20,000 bases of DNA from an uncultured virus (IMG/VR IMGVR_UViG_3300035520_000308) (Duplodnaviria; Heunggongvirae; Uroviricota; Caudoviricetes): the IMG/VR virus record IMGVR_UViG_3300035520_000308, one strand, 5' to 3'. The notes under the pieces were generated by a model. The model was given only the letters and a program-made list of their open reading frames with translations. It did no database searches and had not been told where the DNA came from. Of the stretch, positions 2,577 through 18,222 are shown in pieces. Position numbers and translations under genes: made by a program. Every line of letters starts with the position of its first letter. The first letter of the stretch is position 1.

Positions 2577-3461
2577 TTATGCAATGTCATTCTCAAATTC
2601 AATGCCATATTCTCTGCACTTTTCGACTAACTCATCAAGGCTCTTTCTTCCAAGATTTCTAATTTGCATAAGTTGGCTTAAACTGTAATCTTCAAGTTGG
2701 CGCGATTGAGTAATTCCTGCGCGCTTAAGGCAATTATATGCTCTTACGGATAAATTCATCTCCTCGATATATACGTTAGGGATAGGTACATCAAAACCGT
2801 CTTTGTTTAATTTTGCTATTTCTGCAAGTTTTTCTGTGCGTTCTTTTATGTCTTTTAATCTATTTGCGCTTTTTACCGTTTCTGCACACCTTTTCCGATA
2901 TTCTTCCTCGGCTCTTTTAATCTTTTCTTGATAAGCCTTTTGCTCATCAATGATTTGTTGATACTTTTCAAGATATTCCTTGCCGATTGTAAATATTTTC
3001 ACTCTGTTTGGGTGACGCAATTTTCTATGTGCCTTATGTTCAACTTGTCGTATTCTCTCTCTTGTGACATTAAAAATCTTTCCAATTTCCTCATACGTCA
3101 TACCGTCTTCAAATCGGTAGCGGACTATCTTTGATTCTCTGTCCGTAAGAGTTTGCAATGCAAATTCATAGCACTCGTCAAAATCAGATGCATATGCAAC
3201 TTTGCCATCAAATACAGTATTTAAAAACTTCTCTTTCCAGTCGTATTCGATTTCAACATCTGCAACTGGAATATCCTCTTTGTACGCCCATTCTCTACGC
3301 ACAAACTCTCTAAACTTGTCTGAGTTAATATTTTCCAATCTACAAGCTGATTGTTCACTTTCTCCACTCTCAACATGTTCAACGATATTCAACATACGAG
3401 TAAGGATATCTTTTGCGTTTGCATAAATCTCTTTCTTTTGCACTTTTTGCTTTCCTGCCAT
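2577..3461 (-). CDS. Fusion of sigma70 region 4 HTH, coiled coil and RNA polymerase alpha C-terminal domain
   Basis: [30 protein letters not shown] (SigA r4.2-like) and [19 protein letters not shown]...[12 protein letters not shown] (RpoA CTD-like). Confidence 0.9.
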
Positions 3462-3492: not shown

Positions 3493-4545
3493 TCAATCAT
3501 CATCCTTTTCGTCTATTCCTCCATAACAAGTCCTGTAAAACAGATTCTCAATTATGGTATCATTCCAGAAATAGCACAATGTCTTGTCTATTTCTCCGTC
3601 AAATCCACCTCGCTTGTTATATTCCGTGTTAAAGAATTTGTCTATCATCATGCGATAGCTTTCAATTATCTCGTCCTCTTCCATCGTTGCCAATAGTTCT
3701 GTTGGCTCTATATACTTCCTGACTAACTTCTCTATCGTTTCCGGTTTCAGAAATTTATGCGGTTTTCCAAGCCTTAATTTATATTGTTCGCAAAAATATG
3801 AGACTATATTGACAAATTCTTCTGTCTTAGATTTGCTATCTTCCACACATTCAGATTCTATGTACTGCTCTGCTATGTTCTTCACATACTTCATGTCTAG
3901 TCCTTTGTTCGGTTTGGTTTCAGAATCAGAAAAAGCATAAGATTCTTTCTTTTTCTCTTTGGAAAAAGCATTATTATATTTATTTTCCTTTGGAAAATCA
4001 TTATAGGTATTCTCTGTATTGTAATCTCTGTTATTGTTATATATATTATATATATTATTATAAGGCTCTGTCACATTGTCTGATTCCATTCCGTCATTTT
4101 GTCTGTATCTGGAATTTTCATTGTCTTTTGTCTCTTCTTTTTCTTCTCGATTTTGTGATTCTTCTGTATCTTCTCCTGCAAGTTTTTTCAGTAATTTTTT
4201 CAGTTCGTCTTTATTTATCGTATACCAGTTTGGTCTTTTAGTCCTGTCTTCGCTATAATCTCCTACGATGATAAGATTCTTTTCTCGCAAAGATTTAAAT
4301 GCTCTCTCAATTGTCTTTTCAGAAAAAAACGGAAAGTTATCTTCTTTCCATTGTTTCATGGAATTATATACCCAGTATTTTCCATCTCGGAAATTTCTGT
4401 TTTCAGATTCATTATGTTCTACCCAGTAATAAACTTGCCTTAAAACGATTGTCTCATTTAGACCAATTTCTGTTGCTAATTCCGTGTTTACTGGGATGTT
4501 GTTTTTACTCGACAAGAGCAATTTTATGTAGTCACTCATTTTCAT
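3493..4545 (-). CDS. Phage replication initiator / replisome organiser-like protein (N-terminal wHTH); true start may be ATG 4539
   Basis: IGLNETIVLRQVYYW...WVYNSMKQW...FPFFSEKTIERAF...WYTIN N-domain, low-complexity Asn-rich linker, AGGAGG SD. Confidence 0.75.
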   Translation of the reverse strand: MKMSDYIKLLLSSKNNIPVNTELATEIGLNETIVLRQVYYWVEHNESENRNFRDGKYWVYNSMKQWKEDNFPFFSEKTIERAFKSLREKNLIIVGDYSEDRTKRPNWYTINKDELKKLLKKLAGEDTEESQNREEKEETKDNENSRYRQNDGMESDNVTEPYNNIYNIYNNNRDYNTENTYNDFPKENKYNNAFSKEKKKESYAFSDSETKPNKGLDMKYVKNIAEQYIESECVEDSKSKTEEFVNIVSYFCEQYKLRLGKPHKFLKPETIEKLVRKYIEPTELLATMEEDEIIESYRMMIDKFFNTEYNKRGGFDGEIDKTLCYFWNDTIIENLFYRTCYGGIDEKDDD

Positions 4546-4598
4546 ACCTCCTGTGTTGATATTAAATGCCCACGCATATTTCCTGTGAATTATAAAAA

Positions 4599-4652
4599 CA
4601 ACGGACAGGCAATCACAGGTTTTGCTTTTCGCCCCGTCGGGCTATTCCGTTG
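4599..4652 (-). ncRNA. 3-way-junction leader RNA A (c4-like architecture) upstream of replication initiator
   Basis: CAACGGA/TCCGTTG closing stem, GCCC-GACG-GGGC hairpin, GAAAA, GCAA-AACCTGTGA-TTGC hairpin; loop complementary to downstream sites including the SD. Confidence 0.6.
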
Positions 4653-4664
4653 GTTTTACCAATT

Positions 4665-4886
4665 TTACAGATAACCGAGATTTTTTAGTCCTTGCATAGC
4701 TGAAGTCAACCCATTCTTGCTTATGCCATGAAATTTTGCTTTCTCATCGTCATTTGCAAACTGAATGTCGTTGTATTTTTCAACTCCAAGTATAAATCTC
4801 TGTTCTGGTGTAAGTTTCGTGTCGTAAAACACGCTTTCTGGAATAAATATTCCTTTACCCTGTTTCTTAAACTCTGTTACTGTCAT
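4665..4886 (-). CDS. Small winged-HTH-like protein (73 aa)
   Basis: AAGGCGG SD; IFIPESVFYDTKLT...SAMQGLKNLGYL resembles N-termini of phage replication HTH proteins. Confidence 0.6.
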   Translation of the reverse strand: MTVTEFKKQGKGIFIPESVFYDTKLTPEQRFILGVEKYNDIQFANDDEKAKFHGISKNGLTSAMQGLKNLGYL

Positions 4887-4926
4887 AGCATTACCGCCTT
4901 TCTTGTAATCTGCCTTATCAACATTA

Positions 4927-4983
4927 TGGCAAGGAAGCGACTAAGGCTTGTCGCTTATCGTGTTGCAATCACTATCCCTGCCA
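4927..4983 (-). ncRNA. 3-way-junction leader RNA B (same architecture as A)
   Basis: TGGCAGGGA/TCCTTGCCA stem (G-U on minus strand), GTG/CAC hairpin, AGCGAC-AAGCCTTA-GTCGCT hairpin. Confidence 0.6.
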
Positions 4984-4986
4984 GAA

Positions 4987-5045
4987 AGGAGATGCGGGAT
5001 TTGCACCCACGCATTTTATGTTCTGGCTAACTGAACTAATCTCCT
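4987..5045 (-). ncRNA. tRNA-like element 1 with no anticodon arm
   Basis: AGGAGAT/ATCTCCT 7-bp acceptor, TA, GTTC-AGTTAGCCA-GAAC D-arm, 9-nt linker, GTGGG-TGCAAAT-CCCGC T-arm. Confidence 0.75.
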
Positions 5046-5271
5046 GAAATGCCTCTATGGCTTTGTATTTTCAATTTTTAGACCTGCTTTCACTATTGGT
5101 CGATAATTTACCATCCGCAATAAAAACGTGCCTTAAAATCGAAATTTGAGTGGTTTCAGACAGATGTAGTAGGCGAAGAAAAGAAAATGGGACTACACCT
5201 GTCAGCATTATTTTGTTTTCGACAGCCTGTAACCGCAAAGTCACTGTCTAGTCGGTAATGAGCCGACAGAT

Positions 5272-5421
5272 TGCTATGGTTGGGACTTGCACCCAACAAT
5301 GTAGTTTTGATACGCAAGAAAAGTTTTGTGTGTTTCCTCCTACTCACTGGCTCATCAATATTGCACTACTTCAATTCTCTGTAACAACGTATCAAATAGC
5401 GTCTTATTCCGCCACATAGCA
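5272..5421 (-). ncRNA. tRNA-like element 2 with long insertion in place of the anticodon loop
   Basis: TGCTATG/CATAGCA, TG, GCG-GAATAAGA-CGC D-arm, TTTGATACG/CGTATCAAA stem around a ~70-nt insert, GTTGGG-TGCAAGT-CCCAAC T-arm. Confidence 0.75.
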
Positions 5422-5552
5422 ATTTGATGAATGAGGTTTCCAACTGGAAAGTTTTTTAAATAGCACTTATTACCCGTGACCATCTCGACCTCGCGCAACC
5501 AGTTGACATTATTTTTGGTTTTAGCAGCCTTAACCTCAAAAGTACGCTGCCA

Positions 5553-5662
5553 TTTGATGAAATTTTTGATTATCTGGACTATCAGATAATCATTTCCGAA
5601 CTCTCACCCAGCAAACTTTATAGTCAAAGAGTAATGCTAGTTACGTGAGATTATTCATCAAA
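5553..5662 (-). ncRNA. Structured RNA: 3-way junction with complementary hexaloops
   Basis: 9-bp closing stem; 10-bp perfect hairpin with loop ATAGTC; second arm with loop GACTAT (exact reverse complement). Confidence 0.65.
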
Positions 5663-5812
5663 ATCATGGTATGTTTCTTATACAACCCATGCATTAATTC
5701 TGTCTACCACATACCAGCCAAACAAAATCTTTTACGGAGCTGAAAAGAATAAAAAACAAATTTCTGTAATGCAGAAATTAGATTCCTTTTCTACACTTGG
5801 TAGATAGGGAAT

Positions 5813-5886
5813 GCGCATAATGAGAATCGAACTCATGCTTCCAAACGCTGCCTCATAGAGGCGGACAGAATTACTGCCGTATGCGC
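5813..5886 (-). ncRNA. tRNA-like element 3 (74 nt; aberrant D and anticodon arms)
   Basis: GCGCATA/TATGCGC, GCAG-TAATT-CTGT, GCCTC-TAT-GAGGC, ATGAG-TTCGATT-CTCAT canonical T-arm, discriminator A. Confidence 0.75.
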
Positions 5887-5964
5887 GCCAATCAATTTTG
5901 AAAGGAATTTAAATGAAAAAATGTTTGCCCTCTGACACTGCGCGGGGTTTTGACAGTATCAGAT

Positions 5965-6059
5965 AGTTGCGGTTTGGATTTGCACCAAACAATTTGAGGA
6001 TGTGAATCACTTTCTCAAGGCTCTTCAACATTTGTGTTTACCTTTTCCACCACGCAACT
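5965..6059 (-). ncRNA. tRNA-like element 4 (Leu-like D-arm, no recognisable anticodon arm)
   Basis: AGTTGCG/CGCAACT, TG, GTG-GAAAAGGTAAA-CAC, GTTTGG-TGCAAAT-CCAAAC. Confidence 0.75.
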
Positions 6060-6457
6060 ATTTTGTCCATTTTATGACTATGTGGATGCATAGGATTTAA
6101 CTGTCTCAGAGGAGTATCCGCCGGTGCTACCGACTTGCAGGAATCAAACCGCCCGCCCAAGCTATAAGGACTAGACCACTATGTTTGCTCTTGCCAGTTT
6201 TACAGTTTACTCTGTTTGACAGCTATGCGCTCTGCCAAAGCGTGATAATCCATTCTGATTATACAATCTGTCTGTGATATCACTCACCGACTTTGAAATG
6301 GATTACTTCTTAGGTGATTATACGTTTGTCATACGGATTTTAACGTCTTTTTCTGACGGTTTGTGGTATATTATTCCGTGACGTCTTTGGATAACATCCT
6401 CTTCCGACGGACAACTAGCACTCATCCCCATTAATATACAGGAATGACCGTCAGAAA

Positions 6458-6521
6458 TGGCAATCCGGAGAATTGAACTCCGGTCCTATGAGTTATCATC
6501 GCGCCCATACACCAATTGCCA
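6458..6521 (-). ncRNA. tRNA-like element 5 (64 nt; shrunken D and anticodon arms)
   Basis: TGGCAAT/ATTGCCA, TG, GTGT-ATGG-GCGC, ATGA-TAAC-TCAT, CCGGAG-TTCAATT-CTCCGG. Confidence 0.72.
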
Positions 6522-6612
6522 CTAAAAATGATTAAAAAGGAGGTCCGCCAAATAATAAAATTTATCTGAACGAATAGTCATTATGGAGCTTGAATCCATC
6601 ATGACCTTTTGG

Positions 6613-6741
6613 CTATTTCTTCTTCTCCTTGTACCCGCTTGCGTATATTGCCCTTGCCTGTTTCTCGGCTTGACTTTTTGTCTTATATGTCTTTCCGGTA
6701 TTTCCAAACTTGTAACCGGATTTTGTTTTATGTACTGGCAT
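6613..6741 (-). CDS. Small basic phage protein, 42 aa (MPVHKTKSGYKFGNTGKTYKTKSQAEKQARAIYASGYKEKKK)
   Basis: GGAGGTG SD 7 nt before ATG 6741; below ORF-track cutoff. Confidence 0.8.
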   Translation of the reverse strand: MPVHKTKSGYKFGNTGKTYKTKSQAEKQARAIYASGYKEKKK

Positions 6742-7133
6742 TTCTCATCACCTCCGTGTAGTTATCATGTAAGGCTTATTTATATTGTTCCAATATAGAA
6801 ATATTATAGTTTATATGAGTTATGTATTAATATTGGATGTGTTAATGGAGTATTTATATATTATAATAAGCCTCTTTTTGTTTTTGAGAAAATTTAAGGC
6901 ACTAACTAGGCGCGATTTTCGGCACTCGGAAAACCCCTGTACCGGTCATCTGCGCCGGCATCTGTCCCCATGCTCCGTTCCATTGTTGAATTGTGTGAAT
7001 TTTAATTCAATTCACCTCATATGCCGCCTATATAGCGGTTAAACAATAATTTATCTGCTAAAACCATGATGTGAAATCACTACAACCCTTGATTTTGCTG
7101 GGGTTTGAATTGTGTCTAAATTGTACATGGCAT

Positions 7134-7778
7134 TTAACTGCTGTTCGTATCGGTTTGCTCGATGAATTGTGTCTGTTTTTCGCTCAAATTTGGCAATTCT
7201 GCGGCGCTTAAAACCTCTGTTTTTTTCGGAGCGTTTGACACATACGGACTATTCCAACCATGCCTGCGGTTGAGGATGGCAATCACACCAACAGGATTCT
7301 TGTTGCCGGTCGCTAATTTTGCCTCCAGACTATCTTCGTTACCTTTGGAAAGTTTTTTGTAAATTTCAGAAGTCGATACACTTAGCTCTCTGCTTCCATT
7401 ACCCCAACCATACAATGTATCTTGTGATATACCTGTAAGATATCCAAATCCACTAAATGTTATTTCTTTATCATTTACTAAACAGAGATATATATAATAG
7501 TCAAGTACATCATTAACATTATTTACATCATAAGCATTACAAGTACATTTATTTAAGTTACTATTGCTATTATTAACATATCCATTTAAAGGCTTATTGG
7601 ATTTTAATTTATTTGTACCCTTGAATACATGTTTATTTATATATATAAGGGCGGCTGTCCATCTGCTCTGTGGCTCTTTGGTCATATCCTCGATTCTGTT
7701 CTCTTTGCAGAACTGGGATAAATATAAATCTATGTCATTTTCAAAGACTTCAACGTCCTGCTCTTGTATCTTCTCCAT
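7134..7778 (-). CDS. Putative terminase small subunit (P22 gp3-like DNA packaging protein)
   Basis: ITFSGFGYLTGISQDTLYGW HTH and C-terminal NPVGVIAILNRRHGW pattern; GAGGTGA SD. Confidence 0.6.
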   Translation of the reverse strand: MEKIQEQDVEVFENDIDLYLSQFCKENRIEDMTKEPQSRWTAALIYINKHVFKGTNKLKSNKPLNGYVNNSNSNLNKCTCNAYDVNNVNDVLDYYIYLCLVNDKEITFSGFGYLTGISQDTLYGWGNGSRELSVSTSEIYKKLSKGNEDSLEAKLATGNKNPVGVIAILNRRHGWNSPYVSNAPKKTEVLSAAELPNLSEKQTQFIEQTDTNSS

Positions 7779-7967: not shown

Positions 7968-8222
7968 TCACGAGAAAGGCAGATCAGGCAAATCGTCATT
8001 GCTGCTGTAAAAATCCGGATGCCTGATATCGCGCTCCTGAATCTTCTGTCTTTCCAGTCTTTCCAATTCTGCCAAAACAAGCCGATTCACAAATGAATTT
8101 ATGCTTTCTCCTTGCGCTTTTATGCGCTCCTTTGTTCCCTTTGGAAATGCCACGTTTACAATATCTTTCTTTTCCTGATATGCCCTTATTGCATTTCTTG
8201 TATATTCCGGAGTTTTTCCCAT
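7968..8222 (-). CDS. Arc/RHH-type DNA-binding protein 1
   Basis: AIRAYQEKKDIVNVAFPKGTKERIKAQGESINSFVNRLVLAELE ribbon-helix-helix pattern. Confidence 0.75.
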   Translation of the reverse strand: MGKTPEYTRNAIRAYQEKKDIVNVAFPKGTKERIKAQGESINSFVNRLVLAELERLERQKIQERDIRHPDFYSSNDDLPDLPFS

Positions 8223-8245
8223 GTTTTTCCTCGCTTTCCATATTG

Positions 8246-8428
8246 TTATATAACGGCATTATATAACAACGTTATATAAAAGTCAATATAACATTTTATA
8301 TAAAATTATATATAACAATGTTATATAAATGGTTATATAAAAAGATATATGATGTTGTTATATAAAATGATATATAAAAAGTTATATGACAATATTATAT
8401 AAAATGCTTATATAAACACGTTATATAA
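8246..8428. repeat. Array of 15 palindromic TTATATAA units at 12-13 bp spacing
   Basis: Exact at 8246, 8259, 8272, 8296, 8321, 8333, 8358, 8395, 8408, 8421; variants at 8284, 8308, 8345, 8370, 8382. Confidence 0.9.
8258..8286 (-). promoter_or_regulatory. SigA-type promoter of RHH gene 1, embedded in the repeat array
   Basis: TTGACT-17-TATAAT. Confidence 0.7.
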
Positions 8429-8996: not shown

Positions 8997-9197
8997 TTAT
9001 TTTTTATATTTTTTCATTCTTTCTAATTCAGCGGCAACAACTTCTTTTATAAAAGCATTAGGCTTTTCAATTCCTAATGCTTTCATAGTGTTCTTTGTTC
9101 CAGCTGGAAAGATAACGTTAATTCTATCATTCTTCTTTTCGTACTCTCTTACTGCTTTTCTCTGCGCTTCTGTTGTTTTTAATTTAGTTTGTTCCAT
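8997..9197 (-). CDS. Arc/RHH-type DNA-binding protein 2 (66 aa), likely early-region repressor
   Basis: AQRKAVREYEKKNDRINVIFPAGTK...NAFIKEVVAAELE; AAGGGAG SD before ATG 9197; similar to 7968-8222. Confidence 0.78.
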   Translation of the reverse strand: MEQTKLKTTEAQRKAVREYEKKNDRINVIFPAGTKNTMKALGIEKPNAFIKEVVAAELERMKKYKK

Positions 9198-9233
9198 TTG
9201 TTTTCTCTCCCTTCTTTTTGTGATATTTATATC

Positions 9234-9352
9234 ATTATACAATAAGTGCGTTATATTGTCAATAGATAAGTGCATTATACAAAATGTACAAAATATAAGT
9301 GCATTATTTGTTTATTTTGCCTATTGTATAAGTGCATTATATATGCTATTAT
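9234..9352. promoter_or_regulatory. Divergent promoter pair with four operator repeats
   Basis: Minus TTGACA(9257-62)-17-TATAAT(9234-39); plus TTGTAT(9324-29)-17-TATTAT(9347-52); ATAAGTGCRTTAT at 9242, 9266, 9295, 9328. Confidence 0.8.
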
Positions 9353-10710: not shown

Positions 10711-10905
10711 ATGTTTTTTAAGAAAGTAAAAGAAAGAAAACCAATCACAATTGAACAGATGAAGAAAATAGACTGCTATTCATTGTTAAAAAGAATGCAG
10801 TCAGGGCAAATCTATTATTTCGATTCAAACTGGAACATTACAGATTCCAACAATACAATCGTTCTGTTCAACGTTGGCGGAATGATTTCAAGGACTGTGA
10901 GATAA
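10711..10905 (+). CDS. Early hypothetical protein
   Basis: Same AGAAAGGTTAAAAAGGTG leader, ATG 10711. Confidence 0.75.
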   Translation: MFFKKVKERKPITIEQMKKIDCYSLLKRMQSGQIYYFDSNWNITDSNNTIVLFNVGGMISRTVR

Positions 10906-10919
10906 TCACAGCTCATTTG

Positions 10920-10948
10920 TTGCGTTTGCTTGCAATTTGTGGTATAAT
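10920..10948 (+). promoter_or_regulatory. SigA-type promoter with no downstream gene
   Basis: TTGCGT-17-TATAAT with extended TG. Confidence 0.6.
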
Positions 10949-11317
10949 AATCTATGTACATATGCGCTCATGTCATGTCATGTCAATTTAGTGTGCCAAT
11001 GCGCGCTCTCCGATGACAGCCGGATGTTATTATGCCCGAAAGCTAAATGTGAACTTTTTGTAAATATCGGCTAGAATATGCTCAAAATTGAGCCGAAATC
11101 TGCGATATTTCTCCGATTGATTTTTTGGCTTTGCAGGCGGCACCCGGGGGGGGTACTTTTCGCTGTACCCGGGAAATTTTTTGAGAAAAGTTTTTGGCAG
11201 AAAACCGCTGAAATCGTGATGAAATTTCAAAAATTACTCTGATTGAAATTCCGGTTTTGCAGACATACCCCGGGGGGGATTGTTTTTCTAACACCGGGAA
11301 TTTTTTTAGGAAATTGT

Positions 11318-11360
11318 TTTACACAGATTTTACATTCGACTTTACACAGATTTTACATTC
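11318..11360. repeat. 20-bp direct repeat TTTACACAGATTTTACATTC x2
   Basis: Exact copies at 11318 and 11341. Confidence 0.85.
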
Positions 11361-11493
11361 CATCGGAATCTTTCCCATTAGTAGAGATAACAAGTCCGAT
11401 AGCGGCATATCTGCTTTTCTTTAATTCTTCCAGTAATTTATCTATTGTCATATCCGGATTTGTCTTTTGAACATATTCCAGTAATCTATCCAT
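11353..11493 (-). CDS. Small hypothetical protein, 46 aa (MDRLLEYVQKTNPDMT...)
   Basis: GGGTGA SD right after the peptidase stop; manually translated. Confidence 0.65.
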   Translation of the reverse strand: MDRLLEYVQKTNPDMTIDKLLEELKKSRYAAIGLVISTNGKDSDGM

Positions 11494-11501
11494 ATCACCC
11501 A

Positions 11502-11816
11502 TTATGCATATCTCCTAACTTGTTTCAAAATTCTATCCACAACAGATATCACATCTCTGCCATATGTAGCCATAAAATCGCATAAAATCTCTTCCGTATC
11601 AATGTCTAGGTTTAACTGGTACTCAAAGCAAAAAATGTGTGTAATTTCGTGCAGTAACACTCTTTCTTTCATGGAATCCGATAGTCTATCGTTTATATAT
11701 ATGGTCTTTACATTGTTATCACATACTCCAAGAACTGAAACATTGTCAGAGCGTTTCAATCTATCGTCAGAAGCCTTTAAAGGTATCAAATTCCATTCAT
11801 TATTATTTATTAGCAT
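11502..11816 (-). CDS. HExxH zinc metallopeptidase-like (ImmA/IrrE-like) protein
   Basis: LGVCD...IYIN...VLLHEITH...EE; GAGGTG SD before ATG 11816. Confidence 0.8.
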   Translation of the reverse strand: MLINNNEWNLIPLKASDDRLKRSDNVSVLGVCDNNVKTIYINDRLSDSMKERVLLHEITHIFCFEYQLNLDIDTEEILCDFMATYGRDVISVVDRILKQVRRYA

Positions 11817-11896
11817 ATTTCTACACCTCACATATAAAACATCCTTAAAAAGAAAAATAAAAGGCTGTCAGCTTTATATTGCCAACAGCCAATAAA

Positions 11897-12679
11897 TTAT
11901 TCTTCTTTGAATAGATTTAATATAAATCGTCTTCCTGTCTGCGTTATCCTCCTGTAATAGATAACACATCCATTATCTAAAACTTCCTGTTTGATATCTT
12001 CATATCCTAAATTACTGTAATCGGAATATAATACCCATGTTCCATTTACTTTGTACTGGAATTTCTTTTCAGAAAGTAATCTGTTTAATTCTTTTGCAGA
12101 TTTAAGATTCAGTTCCTTTGCGATTTCTGTCATTGTGTATGTTTTATTTACATGGGTTAGTATTGCATTCTTCTTTTCTGCCTCTACCCTTGCTTCTCTT
12201 TCTTCCTTTAACTTTGTCAGAAGTTCTATTCCAAAATCCGGATTGTTAAGTATGTTGTCAATTACGTTATCCGTGGCATAAATACCATGCTTTCTAATGC
12301 TAGGGATAATTTCGTCTGCCACAAGTGCTTGAAACTTCTCCGCTGTTTCATTTTTAGCTTTCATGGCTAGGCGGTAGAATACGTTTTCTGGTATGTAATC
12401 CGGTCTTTTCCCATCTTGTCGGGAATTTTCCCCCACTTGTGGGGGAAAGCCTATTTCTCCAAGATAATCGTCCACTCTCTCCCAACGAATAGAAACATAT
12501 TCAGTTCCGTTTTTGTTTTGCGTTTGTGTAAATCCCAACCCTCTAGCTACATTTTCAAGTTTTAAATAAGCAACTCCGTCTTTCTCGTAGCAATCCACAC
12601 CGTTAATTGTAAAAAATTCTTTTTGCGCTTTGCCCGCACAAGAGGTTTTATCCTTAGTCGTAAGAGCAGTGTTTCCCAT
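11897..12679 (-). CDS. Phage antirepressor (Bro-N-like plus KilA-C-like)
   Basis: YIPENVFYRLAMKA...FQALVADEIIPSIRKHGIY, NPDFGIELLTKLKEER, TEIAKEL...ITQTGRRFI. Confidence 0.88.
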   Translation of the reverse strand: MGNTALTTKDKTSCAGKAQKEFFTINGVDCYEKDGVAYLKLENVARGLGFTQTQNKNGTEYVSIRWERVDDYLGEIGFPPQVGENSRQDGKRPDYIPENVFYRLAMKAKNETAEKFQALVADEIIPSIRKHGIYATDNVIDNILNNPDFGIELLTKLKEEREARVEAEKKNAILTHVNKTYTMTEIAKELNLKSAKELNRLLSEKKFQYKVNGTWVLYSDYSNLGYEDIKQEVLDNGCVIYYRRITQTGRRFILNLFKEE

Positions 12680-16881: not shown

Positions 16882-18222
16882 TTAAAAAGTGACAAAACGA
16901 ATCTCAATTTCATCGCCATTTATCACTATTTTTTCGATGCATTCTTTTAGAATTTTGTTCCTTTCTTGAATGCTTAGAATATCAAATGCATCAGAAATTC
17001 TCTTGATTTCATCAATGCTTTTCTTGTCACATTTCATGTCCCTTGATTTTTCTTTTTCAAGTTCCTCTTCCAGATTCTTCAATCTCAATTCTTCCTCTTG
17101 GATTAAGCTAAAGAGATTTTGGCTGTCGTTTTCTGCGTACAAGTTATAGAATTTCTTGATTTTTGCATTGGCTTTCTTGATTGCTTTTTCTATTTCATCT
17201 GCGTTGCTTTCTCTTTTCTTTGTATCATTTAGATTTATCAGAAAATCACCATAATTGGAAATTACTTCTCTTTCGACAGCATCCGCACGGACACAGTTAT
17301 CACAATCTCTGCTACGTTTCATGTATTCCTTTGTGGAATTGTAATGGGAATAGCATACCAGTTTGTGGTAATTCCCCCATTTCTGATACCGCATCCTCGC
17401 GCCACATTTTCCGCAAAAACATAATCCACTAAGCAGATGATTGTTTGTAATGTATGCATTTGTTGTCCTTTTCTTCATCTGCTCTTGCGTTTTTTCAAAG
17501 GTCTTCTTGTCGATGATAGGCTCATGCTTTCCCTTGTACATTCTTCCCTTATATTCGATATAGCCAATATTTGTTTTGCGTATCAGAATTTGATGTACAA
17601 TTCTTTCTCCCTTGAATCCCAACAAATCAGATATCTTATCGCAAGAATATCCCTCCAAATACATATGGTATGCTTGCCTCACATTTTCTGCCTCTTCCGG
17701 TACGATATGCAATATTCCATCGTTTCTGTCGTATCTATATCCGTATGGTGTTCTGCCACCACCCATCCAGTAACCTTTTTTAACGCGCTCAACCATTCCT
17801 GCTCTTGTCCGCAGATAAATAATTTCGCGCTCATACTGGTTTACAGCGGCATTCATAGTAATCATGACTTTATCCATCGGCGTGTCAGTTCTGATTTCTT
17901 CCGTCATGGATATAATCTTAACTCCGTACATCGGAAGAATTTCATACAGTAAATCCAATGTATCTTTCGTATCACGGCTAACTCTGTCTAGCTTATACAC
18001 ATAAACCCTATTGATTATTCCTCTTTTTGCATCGCTTAATAGTTCCTGCACTGCCGGTCTTTCCAACTTTGCACCACTATATCCACCATCTACATACCAC
18101 CTGCTGATAGTGATATCGTTTTTTTCGCAATATTCAGTTATTTCCTCTCTTTGCAAATCAAGTCCATACTTCTCAACCTGTGCGTCCGTTGACACTCTTA
18201 AATATGCAACATCTTTTTTCAT
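16882..18222 (-). CDS. Large serine recombinase/integrase
   Basis: YLRVSTDAQ catalytic Ser, DGGYSG, VYKLDRVSR, PYGY, HEPII, LSGLCFCGKCG Zn ribbon, coiled coil. Confidence 0.96.
   Translation of the reverse strand: MKKDVAYLRVSTDAQVEKYGLDLQREEITEYCEKNDITISRWYVDGGYSGAKLERPAVQELLSDAKRGIINRVYVYKLDRVSRDTKDTLDLLYEILPMYGVKIISMTEEIRTDTPMDKVMITMNAAVNQYEREIIYLRTRAGMVERVKKGYWMGGGRTPYGYRYDRNDGILHIVPEEAENVRQAYHMYLEGYSCDKISDLLGFKGERIVHQILIRKTNIGYIEYKGRMYKGKHEPIIDKKTFEKTQEQMKKRTTNAYITNNHLLSGLCFCGKCGARMRYQKWGNYHKLVCYSHYNSTKEYMKRSRDCDNCVRADAVEREVISNYGDFLINLNDTKKRESNADEIEKAIKKANAKIKKFYNLYAENDSQNLFSLIQEEELRLKNLEEELEKEKSRDMKCDKKSIDEIKRISDAFDILSIQERNKILKECIEKIVINGDEIEIRFVTF

Follow-up and report, generated by a model that had tools for sequence, protein, structure and literature searches.

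A predicted three-way junction with complementary loops in a gene-free, partly tRNA-like stretch of an uncultured phage genome

Positions 5553-5662 of the 20,000-nt window analysed here (the whole stretch presented above, from IMG/VR record IMGVR_UViG_3300035520_000308) are predicted to fold as a stable three-way junction, and they lie within a gene-free string of stem-closed domains, several of which resemble tRNAs. Taking the fold models together with the genomic surroundings, we tentatively read this 110-nt element as a structured domain, not itself a tRNA, within the non-coding transcript of a tRNA-like cluster.

Sequence features and predicted fold

The individual sequence features given in a preliminary description of this DNA stand. 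TTTGATGAA (5553-5561) is the exact complement of TTCATCAAA (5654-5662), which gives a closing stem of 9 bp; TGATTATCTG (5567-5576) and CAGATAATCA (5583-5592) make a perfect 10-bp hairpin around the 6-nt loop GACTAT (5577-5582); and ATAGTC (5620-5625) is the exact 6-nt Watson-Crick complement of that loop. The three-way junction proposed from these pieces is also the minimum-energy fold of both strands in ViennaRNA. The picture of two paired hexaloops holds in part. Arm 1 does end in a hexaloop, whereas the second hexaloop needs a 4-bp stem, CUUU/AAAG, and the minimum-energy loops differ from it: on the plus strand arm 2 is predicted to end in an 8-nt loop, AUAGUCAA, closed by a 5-bp stem that includes one G-U pair, and on the minus strand it ends in a tetraloop in the minimum-energy fold and in a hexaloop in the centroid. 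The parts of the element, together with a repeat that bears on its closure, are as follows.

5423..5431, no strand assigned: second copy of TTTGATGAA, found by repeat search, which competes for the closing strand on the minus strand
5553..5561, no strand assigned: 5' strand of the closing stem, TTTGATGAA in plus-strand sense (sequence, folds and pairing probability)
5567..5592, no strand assigned: arm 1, the 10-bp hairpin with loop GACTAT (sequence and folds; robust in every context)
5602..5650, no strand assigned: arm 2, an interrupted helix whose terminal loop contains ATAGTC at 5620-5625 (folds and pairing probability)
5654..5662, no strand assigned: 3' strand of the closing stem, TTCATCAAA (sequence, folds and pairing probability)

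Folded alone in ViennaRNA, the 110 nt reach -29.8 kcal/mol on the plus strand (z -4.60) and -32.3 kcal/mol on the minus strand (z -4.31), and on neither strand did any of 200 shuffles fold as well. In a sliding z-score scan of 4700-6800 the element is the strongest local fold, with z -4.4 and -4.8 at 5550-5659, and the minus strand has a second peak at 6350-6459 (z -4.6). The junction strands measure 5, 9 and 3 nt and the arms are unequal and interrupted; in the plus-strand fold arm 1 has 10 bp and the part of arm 2 above its internal loop about 10 bp. Each strand gains one G-U pair, and for this reason the fold itself does not decide between them.

Closure of the junction is complicated by repetition, as the closing strand is present three times, in a 13-nt direct repeat (5419-5431 and 5549-5561, identical at 12 of 13 positions) and in an inverted copy. 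The direct repeat brackets the conserved 93-nt module listed below, and because of it the minus-strand closing strand, UUUGAUGAA (5662-5654), has two possible partners. We followed the competition between them through 12 partition-function folds covering both strands and ranging from the isolated element up to 5000-6100. In isolation or within 5500-5720 the closing stem has a probability of 0.82-0.91 on either strand (0.82-0.87 on the minus strand), and the plus-strand junction survives every context tried, with a closing-stem probability of 0.58-0.92. On the minus strand, by contrast, the closing stem drops to 0.01-0.27 within 5400-5720, 5400-5800, 5250-5900 and 5000-6100; in these wide contexts the base of arm 2 has a probability of 0.14-0.41, and the junction is lost because 5662-5654 pairs instead with the second copy at 5431-5423 (probability 0.63-0.90). 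Arm 1 is the sole part that is robust throughout, with a pairing probability of 0.98 in 12 of 12 folds. By these models the junction is a minority fold in wide contexts on the strand that is likely transcribed. Co-transcriptional folding could nonetheless favour it, since the minus strand would make the junction before its competitor.

The surrounding stretch and its relatives

The element lies in an ORF-free stretch of 1.7 kb (approximately 4890-6610), which holds no ORF of at least 70 aa with family support under the standard code and no long ORF when TGA, TAG or TAA is read as sense. An open frame of 82 codons at 5355-5603 on the minus strand was considered as a gene and rejected; it has no family match, and its similarity to a frame in the related contig L001 reflects DNA conservation across a tRNA gene. 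Between 338 and 9275 every supported gene lies on the minus strand, as do the int-alpA RNA motif and the tRNA-like matches, and with every neighbouring gene and RNA motif in this orientation the minus strand is the likelier transcript of the element. The features recognised in the window are listed here.

1402-2136, minus: ThyX (name read from the translation)
2140-2556, minus: dUTPase (name read from the translation)
2577-3461, minus: sigma-like factor
3493-4545, minus: DnaD-like replication initiator (family match)
4582-4652, minus: int-alpA RNA motif, preceding the replication initiator (Rfam)
4665-4886, minus: small putative DNA-binding gene (HTH reading by eye; no family match)
4986..5045, minus: tRNA-like domain without an anticodon arm (Rfam tRNA, 39.6 bits, E 3.1e-06)
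5206..5267, minus: conserved double hairpin (84% identity to L001; covered by a gut RNA-library contig)
5431..5522, minus: conserved 93-nt module, outside the junction (90% identity to L001)
5812..5886, minus: degenerate tRNA-like domain, upstream of the element on the minus strand (relaxed ARAGORN; Rfam tRNA, 24.4 bits, which falls below the gathering score of 29)
6457..6521, minus: tRNA-like domain with acceptor and T arm (relaxed ARAGORN; mascRNA at E 0.66 and tmRNA at E 0.043, both weak)
6613-6741, minus: small phrog_31267 protein
7134-7778, minus: weakly terS-like protein (GP3_package, phrog_606)
16882-18222: serine recombinase (named from the translation only)

The window also contains an operator-like, multi-copy array of TTATATAA repeats at 8246-8428.

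Within the stretch the element is placed between the tRNA-like domain at 5812-5886 and the 93-nt module at 5431-5522. The neighbouring domains are closed by terminal stems of 7-12 bp; two of them, 5267-5426 and 5963-6061, have closing stems of 12 and 9 bp respectively and carry a T-arm-like hairpin that a repeat search found three times. None of the tRNA-like domains is called by ARAGORN at default settings. A promoter-like site with 10 of 12 matches faces the stretch from the minus strand at 6830-6803, within a set of such sites that is not enriched overall (10 against a shuffle mean of 8.2). The sole minus-strand terminator-like site, 5010-4994, coincides with the T arm of a tRNA-like domain, and the stretch thus offers no convincing terminator. 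The scan reports no intrinsic terminator at 5567-5592 either; there the stem of arm 1 has G-C pairs at 3 of 10 positions and is followed by UUUCCGAA on the plus strand and AAAAAUUU on the minus strand, as against the G+C-rich stem and U run of the terminator criterion. No supported gene start lies within 600 nt downstream of the element on either strand.

Two public runs contain small shares of 4600-7100. Their contigs cover 4600-4660, 5205-5267 and 5986-6350 only, and are uninformative on 5553-5662 either way. Contigs from a gut RNA library cover 5205-5267 and, in several variants, 5986-6350, with strand and ends not readable from the contigs, and one of them runs past 5267 into a T-arm-like hairpin in which compensating changes are seen. 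Some modules of the stretch thus appear to be present in other elements as well, and to turn up in RNA preparations.

A single related contig was found in IMG/VR (L001, the same contig as L005 and G001), a complete genome of 73.9 kb whose terS-like protein is 55% identical to that of the window. Its equivalent place holds a tRNA-Tyr, an odd tRNA and conserved hairpins. Positions 8126-8188 of L001, directly after the tRNA-Tyr, are 84% identical to 5206-5267, and positions 8175-8265 are 90% identical to 5431-5522, with the module there ending at the ThyX ribosome-binding site. Across the whole L001 contig blastn gives no match to 5553-5662. A covariance-model match in L001 (22.3 bits) was set aside as a plain intergenic hairpin, as it comes without the closing stem and arm 1. 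Dulem virus 39 (GenBank, lemur faeces) is a more distant relative, with a terS-like protein 34.6% identical, and it likewise has no DNA or covariance-model match to the element. On the sequences at hand the element therefore appears to be an orphan: the nearest available relatives do without it, and L001 does so while keeping its neighbour modules. With these adjacent modules retained at 84-90% identity in a genome that lacks the element, it is either dispensable or recent.

Wider searches did not change this picture. No match to 4900-7100 was found by blastn in GenBank phages and plasmids, and 80 ThyX-anchored loci gave 0 blastn matches at E up to 1e-3. The terS-like protein retrieved one locus from IMG/VR (L001) and 139 pattern matches from JGI metagenomes, with 0 relatives among the latter; the small 73-aa neighbour protein gave no relative. 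An exact 24-mer of the conserved module was met 0 times in metagenomes, an exact 24-mer of arm 1 0 times in 185,579 species genomes, and a loop-anchored gapped pattern gave 0 matches. The pattern GAGGTCGAGATGGTNACGG matched 8 IMG/VR loci, the sole related one being L005, and of two further IMG/VR patterns taken from neighbouring conserved pieces one had 0 matches and the other returned only the L001 contig. Two sets of hits were discarded: a hairpin pattern with free loop gave 10 IMG/VR loci, all of them one unrelated coding sequence on inspection by eye, and a 19-mer found in the species genomes only a 25-nt repeat in a flavobacterium, judged irrelevant. A covariance model built from the single sequence and run over 84 sources (1.19 Mb) recovered only the window itself, the next best matches having E 4.2 and 9.7. 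Since no collection searched yielded a homologue, there is no evidence of selection on the fold.

What the element may be

The reading that we tentatively favour would work as follows. The 1.7-kb stretch would be a string of self-contained, stem-closed domains in a temperate-type phage, several of them degenerate tRNA-like, and the whole would be transcribed from the minus strand with the flanking genes, much like a phage tRNA-gene cluster. The element would form a non-tRNA insert or spacer domain of that transcript, and its 10-bp hairpin would help the RNA to fold and stay stable, or would mark a processing boundary. Around this hairpin the junction would form locally, probably co-transcriptionally, and would compete with pairing to the duplicated strand 130 nt downstream. 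The 6-nt complementarity of the loops may add a tertiary contact, and the reading holds without it. Transcription of the element, its strand and any function it has are what we infer from this setting.

It also should be considered that the tRNA-like neighbours are degenerate. They may be decaying remnants, in which case the accidental folding of junk DNA could account for the whole stretch. On such an account, which we regard as unlikely but well worth weighing, the element is a chance fold in decaying non-coding DNA made of former tRNA genes and short duplications; its hairpin and matching loops have no function, and its closing stem is a by-product of the 13-nt duplication and the inverted copy. 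The absence of the element from both relatives, and hence of any conservation, is in keeping with this, as is the threefold occurrence of the closing strand (5419-5431 and 5549-5561 direct, one inverted). By a rough estimate, AT-rich DNA should offer several 9-bp complements spaced within about 100 nt in every 20 kb, and the tRNA-like neighbours fail default ARAGORN, some also falling below the Rfam gathering score.

Two tests of chance bear on this account and point in different directions. A test based on minimum-energy folds took every 110-nt segment at a step of 10 on both strands and counted pairs of hairpin loops, each no longer than 10 nt, that are Watson-Crick complementary over 6 or more contiguous nt. 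The real window gave 1 case, the element itself, and three block-wise dinucleotide shuffles gave 4, 1 and 0, so loop complementarity alone is at chance level. A combinatorial test considered perfect stems only, counting pairs of hairpins with complementary loops within 120 nt against 300 shuffles. Two perfect hairpins with complementary loops occur 3 times in the real sequence, where the shuffles average 0.31; if one of the stems must reach 8 bp, the real count is 1 and no shuffle of the 300 has a case, and the same result (1 against 0/300) is obtained when an 8-bp closing stem is added. The rarity is driven mostly by the perfect 10-bp hairpin and the full architecture, not by the loops. That the combination is missing from all 300 shuffles speaks against a chance fold, as does the z-score of the element, the strongest in the region for each strand. 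Such shuffles are, it must be said, lenient as a null where genomes contain duplications and palindromes, and odds of a few in a thousand for one window carry little weight when very many windows are scanned. The region also does not drift freely, which counts further against decay: its adjacent modules are 84-90% kept while the terS-like proteins are only 55% identical.

A signal equally strong on both strands is what a DNA palindrome would give, and arm 1 can be viewed as a perfect 26-bp palindrome at 5567-5592 (a 10+10 inverted repeat with a 6-bp spacer) that would serve a dimeric DNA-binding protein, or as a cruciform or origin-type element, with the junction incidental. The element folds as single-stranded DNA as well (z -3.89), and it lies about 1 kb upstream of the small putative DNA-binding gene at 4665-4886 and the DnaD-like replication initiator. 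However, the half-site is not repeated above chance in the window, with 5 matches against 2.33 expected and 12 of 200 shuffles reaching 5, whereas the clear operator-like array of the window (TTATATAA, 8246-8428) is multi-copy. Beside the palindrome there is neither an AT-rich unwinding region nor iterons, and it is far from any promoter-like hexamers. A role at the DNA level is, on balance, improbable.

The proposal of the preliminary description is a kissing-loop RNA, in which the loops pair either intramolecularly, with the arms side by side, or intermolecularly, producing closed dimers or rings; the element would then join the small phage RNAs that associate with themselves. Several observations suit it. 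The 6-nt Watson-Crick complementarity between the terminal loops is exact, both hexamers are mostly unpaired in the isolated fold (unpaired probability 0.82-1.00), the similar length of arm 1 and upper arm 2 would allow side-by-side packing, and the combined architecture was again seen in 0/300 shuffles. In the HIV TAR-TAR* and ColE1 RNA I-RNA II kissing complexes, hexaloops or heptaloops are paired over their whole length, and as loops of 6-7 nt can thus pair fully, a 6-bp kiss is sterically possible. These are pairs of separate RNAs, engineered or sense-antisense, and not the arms of one junction. As for precedents, short natural oligomerising RNAs are documented: the pRNA family (PMC4201828), the self-assembling ROOL, GOLLD and OLE (PMC12286853), and self-assembling RNAs under 200 nt such as manA (10.64898/2026.07.01.735769).

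Against this, the loop-loop helix would be weak: its length is exactly 6 bp, two of the pairs are G-C, and its energy is -4.5 kcal/mol for the bare duplex and -6.4 kcal/mol when flanks are included. Complementarity of the same length between loops turned up in shuffled windows too (the 4, 1 and 0 cases above). On the minus strand an extra G-U pair partly closes the second loop, which has an unpaired probability of 0.46-0.58 in context, and for this strand, the one likely to be transcribed, folding in context predicts a structure other than the junction. The element is missing altogether from the related phages. A cofold of two copies returned only the trivial swapped closing stem and is uninformative on oligomers. 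We consider a kissing-loop RNA quite improbable. The boldest version of the idea is a long shot of its own: a small RNA placed like a tRNA in the array, its complementary hexaloops either locking the molecule on itself or joining copies head to tail into closed dimers or rings, would be an orphan member of an uncatalogued phage habit of seeding tRNA clusters with kissing-loop junction RNAs, and the duplicated strand 130 nt downstream would be a switch to an open form that engulfs the 93-nt module.

Known RNAs and significance

The Rfam search put forward in the preliminary description as a check returned no family match to the element. At gathering thresholds int-alpA is the sole match. With E up to 10, the 2.75 kb of 4550-7300 gave 6 matches, none overlapping the element, and a 161-nt search of 5530-5690 gave only snoRNA and lncRNA noise (E 4.9-8.5); at this same cut-off there was no Rfam match to pRNA, the SRP Alu domain, riboswitches, ROOL, GOLLD, OLE, manA or HDV-type ribozymes. 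In PMC10879173, theta (minimal HDV-like) ribozymes adjoin tRNAs of gut phages, the shared trait being a small structured RNA next to tRNA genes. From the sequences listed in part 1 of its supplementary file 6 we derived the core RCY-U-NC-NCGY-RGY, and a regular expression for this conserved core found it absent from the window, L001 and L109, which sets the element apart from these ribozymes.

The phi29 group consists of small, protein-primed phages, and the kiss of pRNA is made between a hairpin loop and an internal loop and spans about 4 bp. A role as a phi29-type packaging RNA working with the nearby terS-like gene had been floated for the element and can be rejected as close to refuted: the resemblance is a general one (a length of about 110-120 nt, a three-way junction, complementary loops) and the location 1.47 kb downstream of the putative terS is correct, yet the terS identity is itself weak (GP3_package at 23 bits against a Pfam cut-off of 29.4; phrog_606 at E 0.018), no large-terminase-sized ORF adjoins that gene in the 20-kb window, neither RF00044 nor any other family matches at E up to 10, two relatives keep the terS-like gene without the element, and a 20-kb window with a DnaD-like initiator, serine recombinase, ThyX, dUTPase and sigma-like factor, from a phage whose relative has a genome of 73.9 kb, is not of phi29-type make-up.

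Among known systems the closest in setting may be sought in phage T4, whose RNA C and RNA D ("species 1 and 2") are small stable non-tRNA RNAs in the phage tRNA cluster and have been shown to be expressed and processed. Like them, the element falls in the range of about 110-140 nt, is stem-closed and non-tRNA, and is not known to have a function; its neighbours are tRNA-like, and it would share their strand if it is transcribed from the minus strand. The T4 RNAs, however, are processed RNAs among tRNAs, whereas the element is predicted only and its neighbours are degenerate tRNA-like domains, and in Rfam there is no sequence or model similarity between them. The purine riboswitch is a three-way junction with a loop-loop contact. 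With this family (RF00167) the element shares a closing helix and two arms whose terminal loops can pair intramolecularly; it differs in having no model match, unequal and interrupted arms, long junction strands (5, 9 and 3 nt) and no gene start following it. With pRNA (RF00044; PMC4201828) it has in common a length of about 110-120 nt, an end helix, a three-way junction and two complementary loops. In contrast to the element, which has no model match and is lacking in two relatives, pRNA is kept by all its relatives, and its kiss is intermolecular. ROOL, GOLLD, OLE and manA are, in the sources given above, phage- or prophage-associated non-coding RNAs in which kissing loops build homo-oligomers; those families are widespread and conserved, whereas the element is an orphan with no Rfam match.

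At present the element is a prediction from a single sequence. It serves mainly as a cautionary case, in that a very stable and attractive fold with matching loops can turn out to be an orphan, missing from the nearest relatives. The context is the more solid observation: a gene-free string of stem-closed, partly tRNA-like domains extends over 1.7 kb, some of its modules are strongly conserved between distant phages, and this stretch is a better target for follow-up than the element itself. Were the fold and its loop-loop contact to prove real, the element would add to the few natural small RNAs that are built around such a contact, and it would strengthen the view that phage tRNA clusters harbour an overlooked set of structured RNAs that are not tRNAs.

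An ORF-free stretch with some tRNA-like domains

On the minus strand, 4890-6610 forms a 1.7-kb stretch that lacks ORFs and is composed of stem-closed domains. The tRNA-like domains have in common a T-arm-like hairpin, GGGUGCAAAUCCC, repeated three times, and default ARAGORN called none of the tRNA-like elements in this stretch.

Degenerate tRNA-like elements within 4890-6610
4986-5045, minus: degenerate tRNA-like element without an anticodon arm
5267-5426, minus: degenerate tRNA-like element
5812-5886, minus: degenerate tRNA-like element
5963-6061, minus: degenerate tRNA-like element
6457-6521, minus: degenerate tRNA-like element

Arm 1 of the candidate three-way junction, 5567-5592, was not among the matches listed when the entire window was scanned for inverted repeats with seed 8 and maximum distance 12; despite this absence, its perfect 10-bp repeat is evident in the sequence and folds.

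Modules conserved in a relative or covered by gut RNA contigs

A 93-nt module at 5431-5522 (minus) is 90% identical to 8175-8265 of L001, a related complete phage genome, whereas the terS-like proteins of the two phages are just 55% identical. One stem of the module (CAACUGG/CCAGUUG versus CAACAUGG/CCUGUUG) carries a compensatory change, noted by eye. The L001 copy extends as far as the ThyX ribosome-binding site; the window copy is distant from ThyX, and a 13-nt direct repeat flanks it, once at 5419-5431 and again at 5549-5561. An Rfam search with 5431-5522 gave no family match.

Also conserved is a hairpin pair at 5206-5267 (minus), 84% identical to 8126-8188 of L001, which follows a tRNA in L001 and a tRNA-like T arm in the window. 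A gut RNA-library contig carries this pair as well, adjoining a T-arm-like hairpin with compensating changes. The core-motif test does not class the pair as a theta ribozyme.

Four short gut metatranscriptome contigs, representing more than one sequence variant, cover 5986-6350. This pattern suggests that a conserved RNA, or else a shared module, lies there; an Rfam search of this region returned no family match.

Neighbouring genes and a palindrome array

An int-alpA RNA motif (4582-4652, minus, 52.5 bits) lies immediately upstream of a gene for a DnaD-like replication initiator, not an integrase or alpA. In the 294-aa protein encoded at 2577-3461 (minus), sigma-70 region 4 (E 1.5e-19) occurs together with an RNA polymerase alpha C-terminal domain (E 7.1e-21); among phage transcription factors such a fusion is unusual.

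A dense array of TTATATAA-N5-TTATATAA palindromes occupies 8246-8428, within the gap next to two small paralogues, one of which weakly matches the ParB C-terminal centromere-binding domain. The array has the appearance of a set of operator or partition sites.

Small paralogous genes beside the palindrome array
7968-8222: phrog_31631
8997-9275: phrog_31631

tRNA-related features of relatives

L001 has what looks by eye like a tRNA-like element without an anticodon arm at about 7405-7470, and it carries at about 7499-7576 an odd tRNA for which ARAGORN reports a 2-nt anticodon. Mini tRNA-likes may be a trait common to this phage group. In Dulem virus 39, which is distantly related, a gene for an RtcB tRNA-splicing ligase (10772-11977) lies near the terS-like gene; its presence is of interest in light of the window's tRNA-like content.
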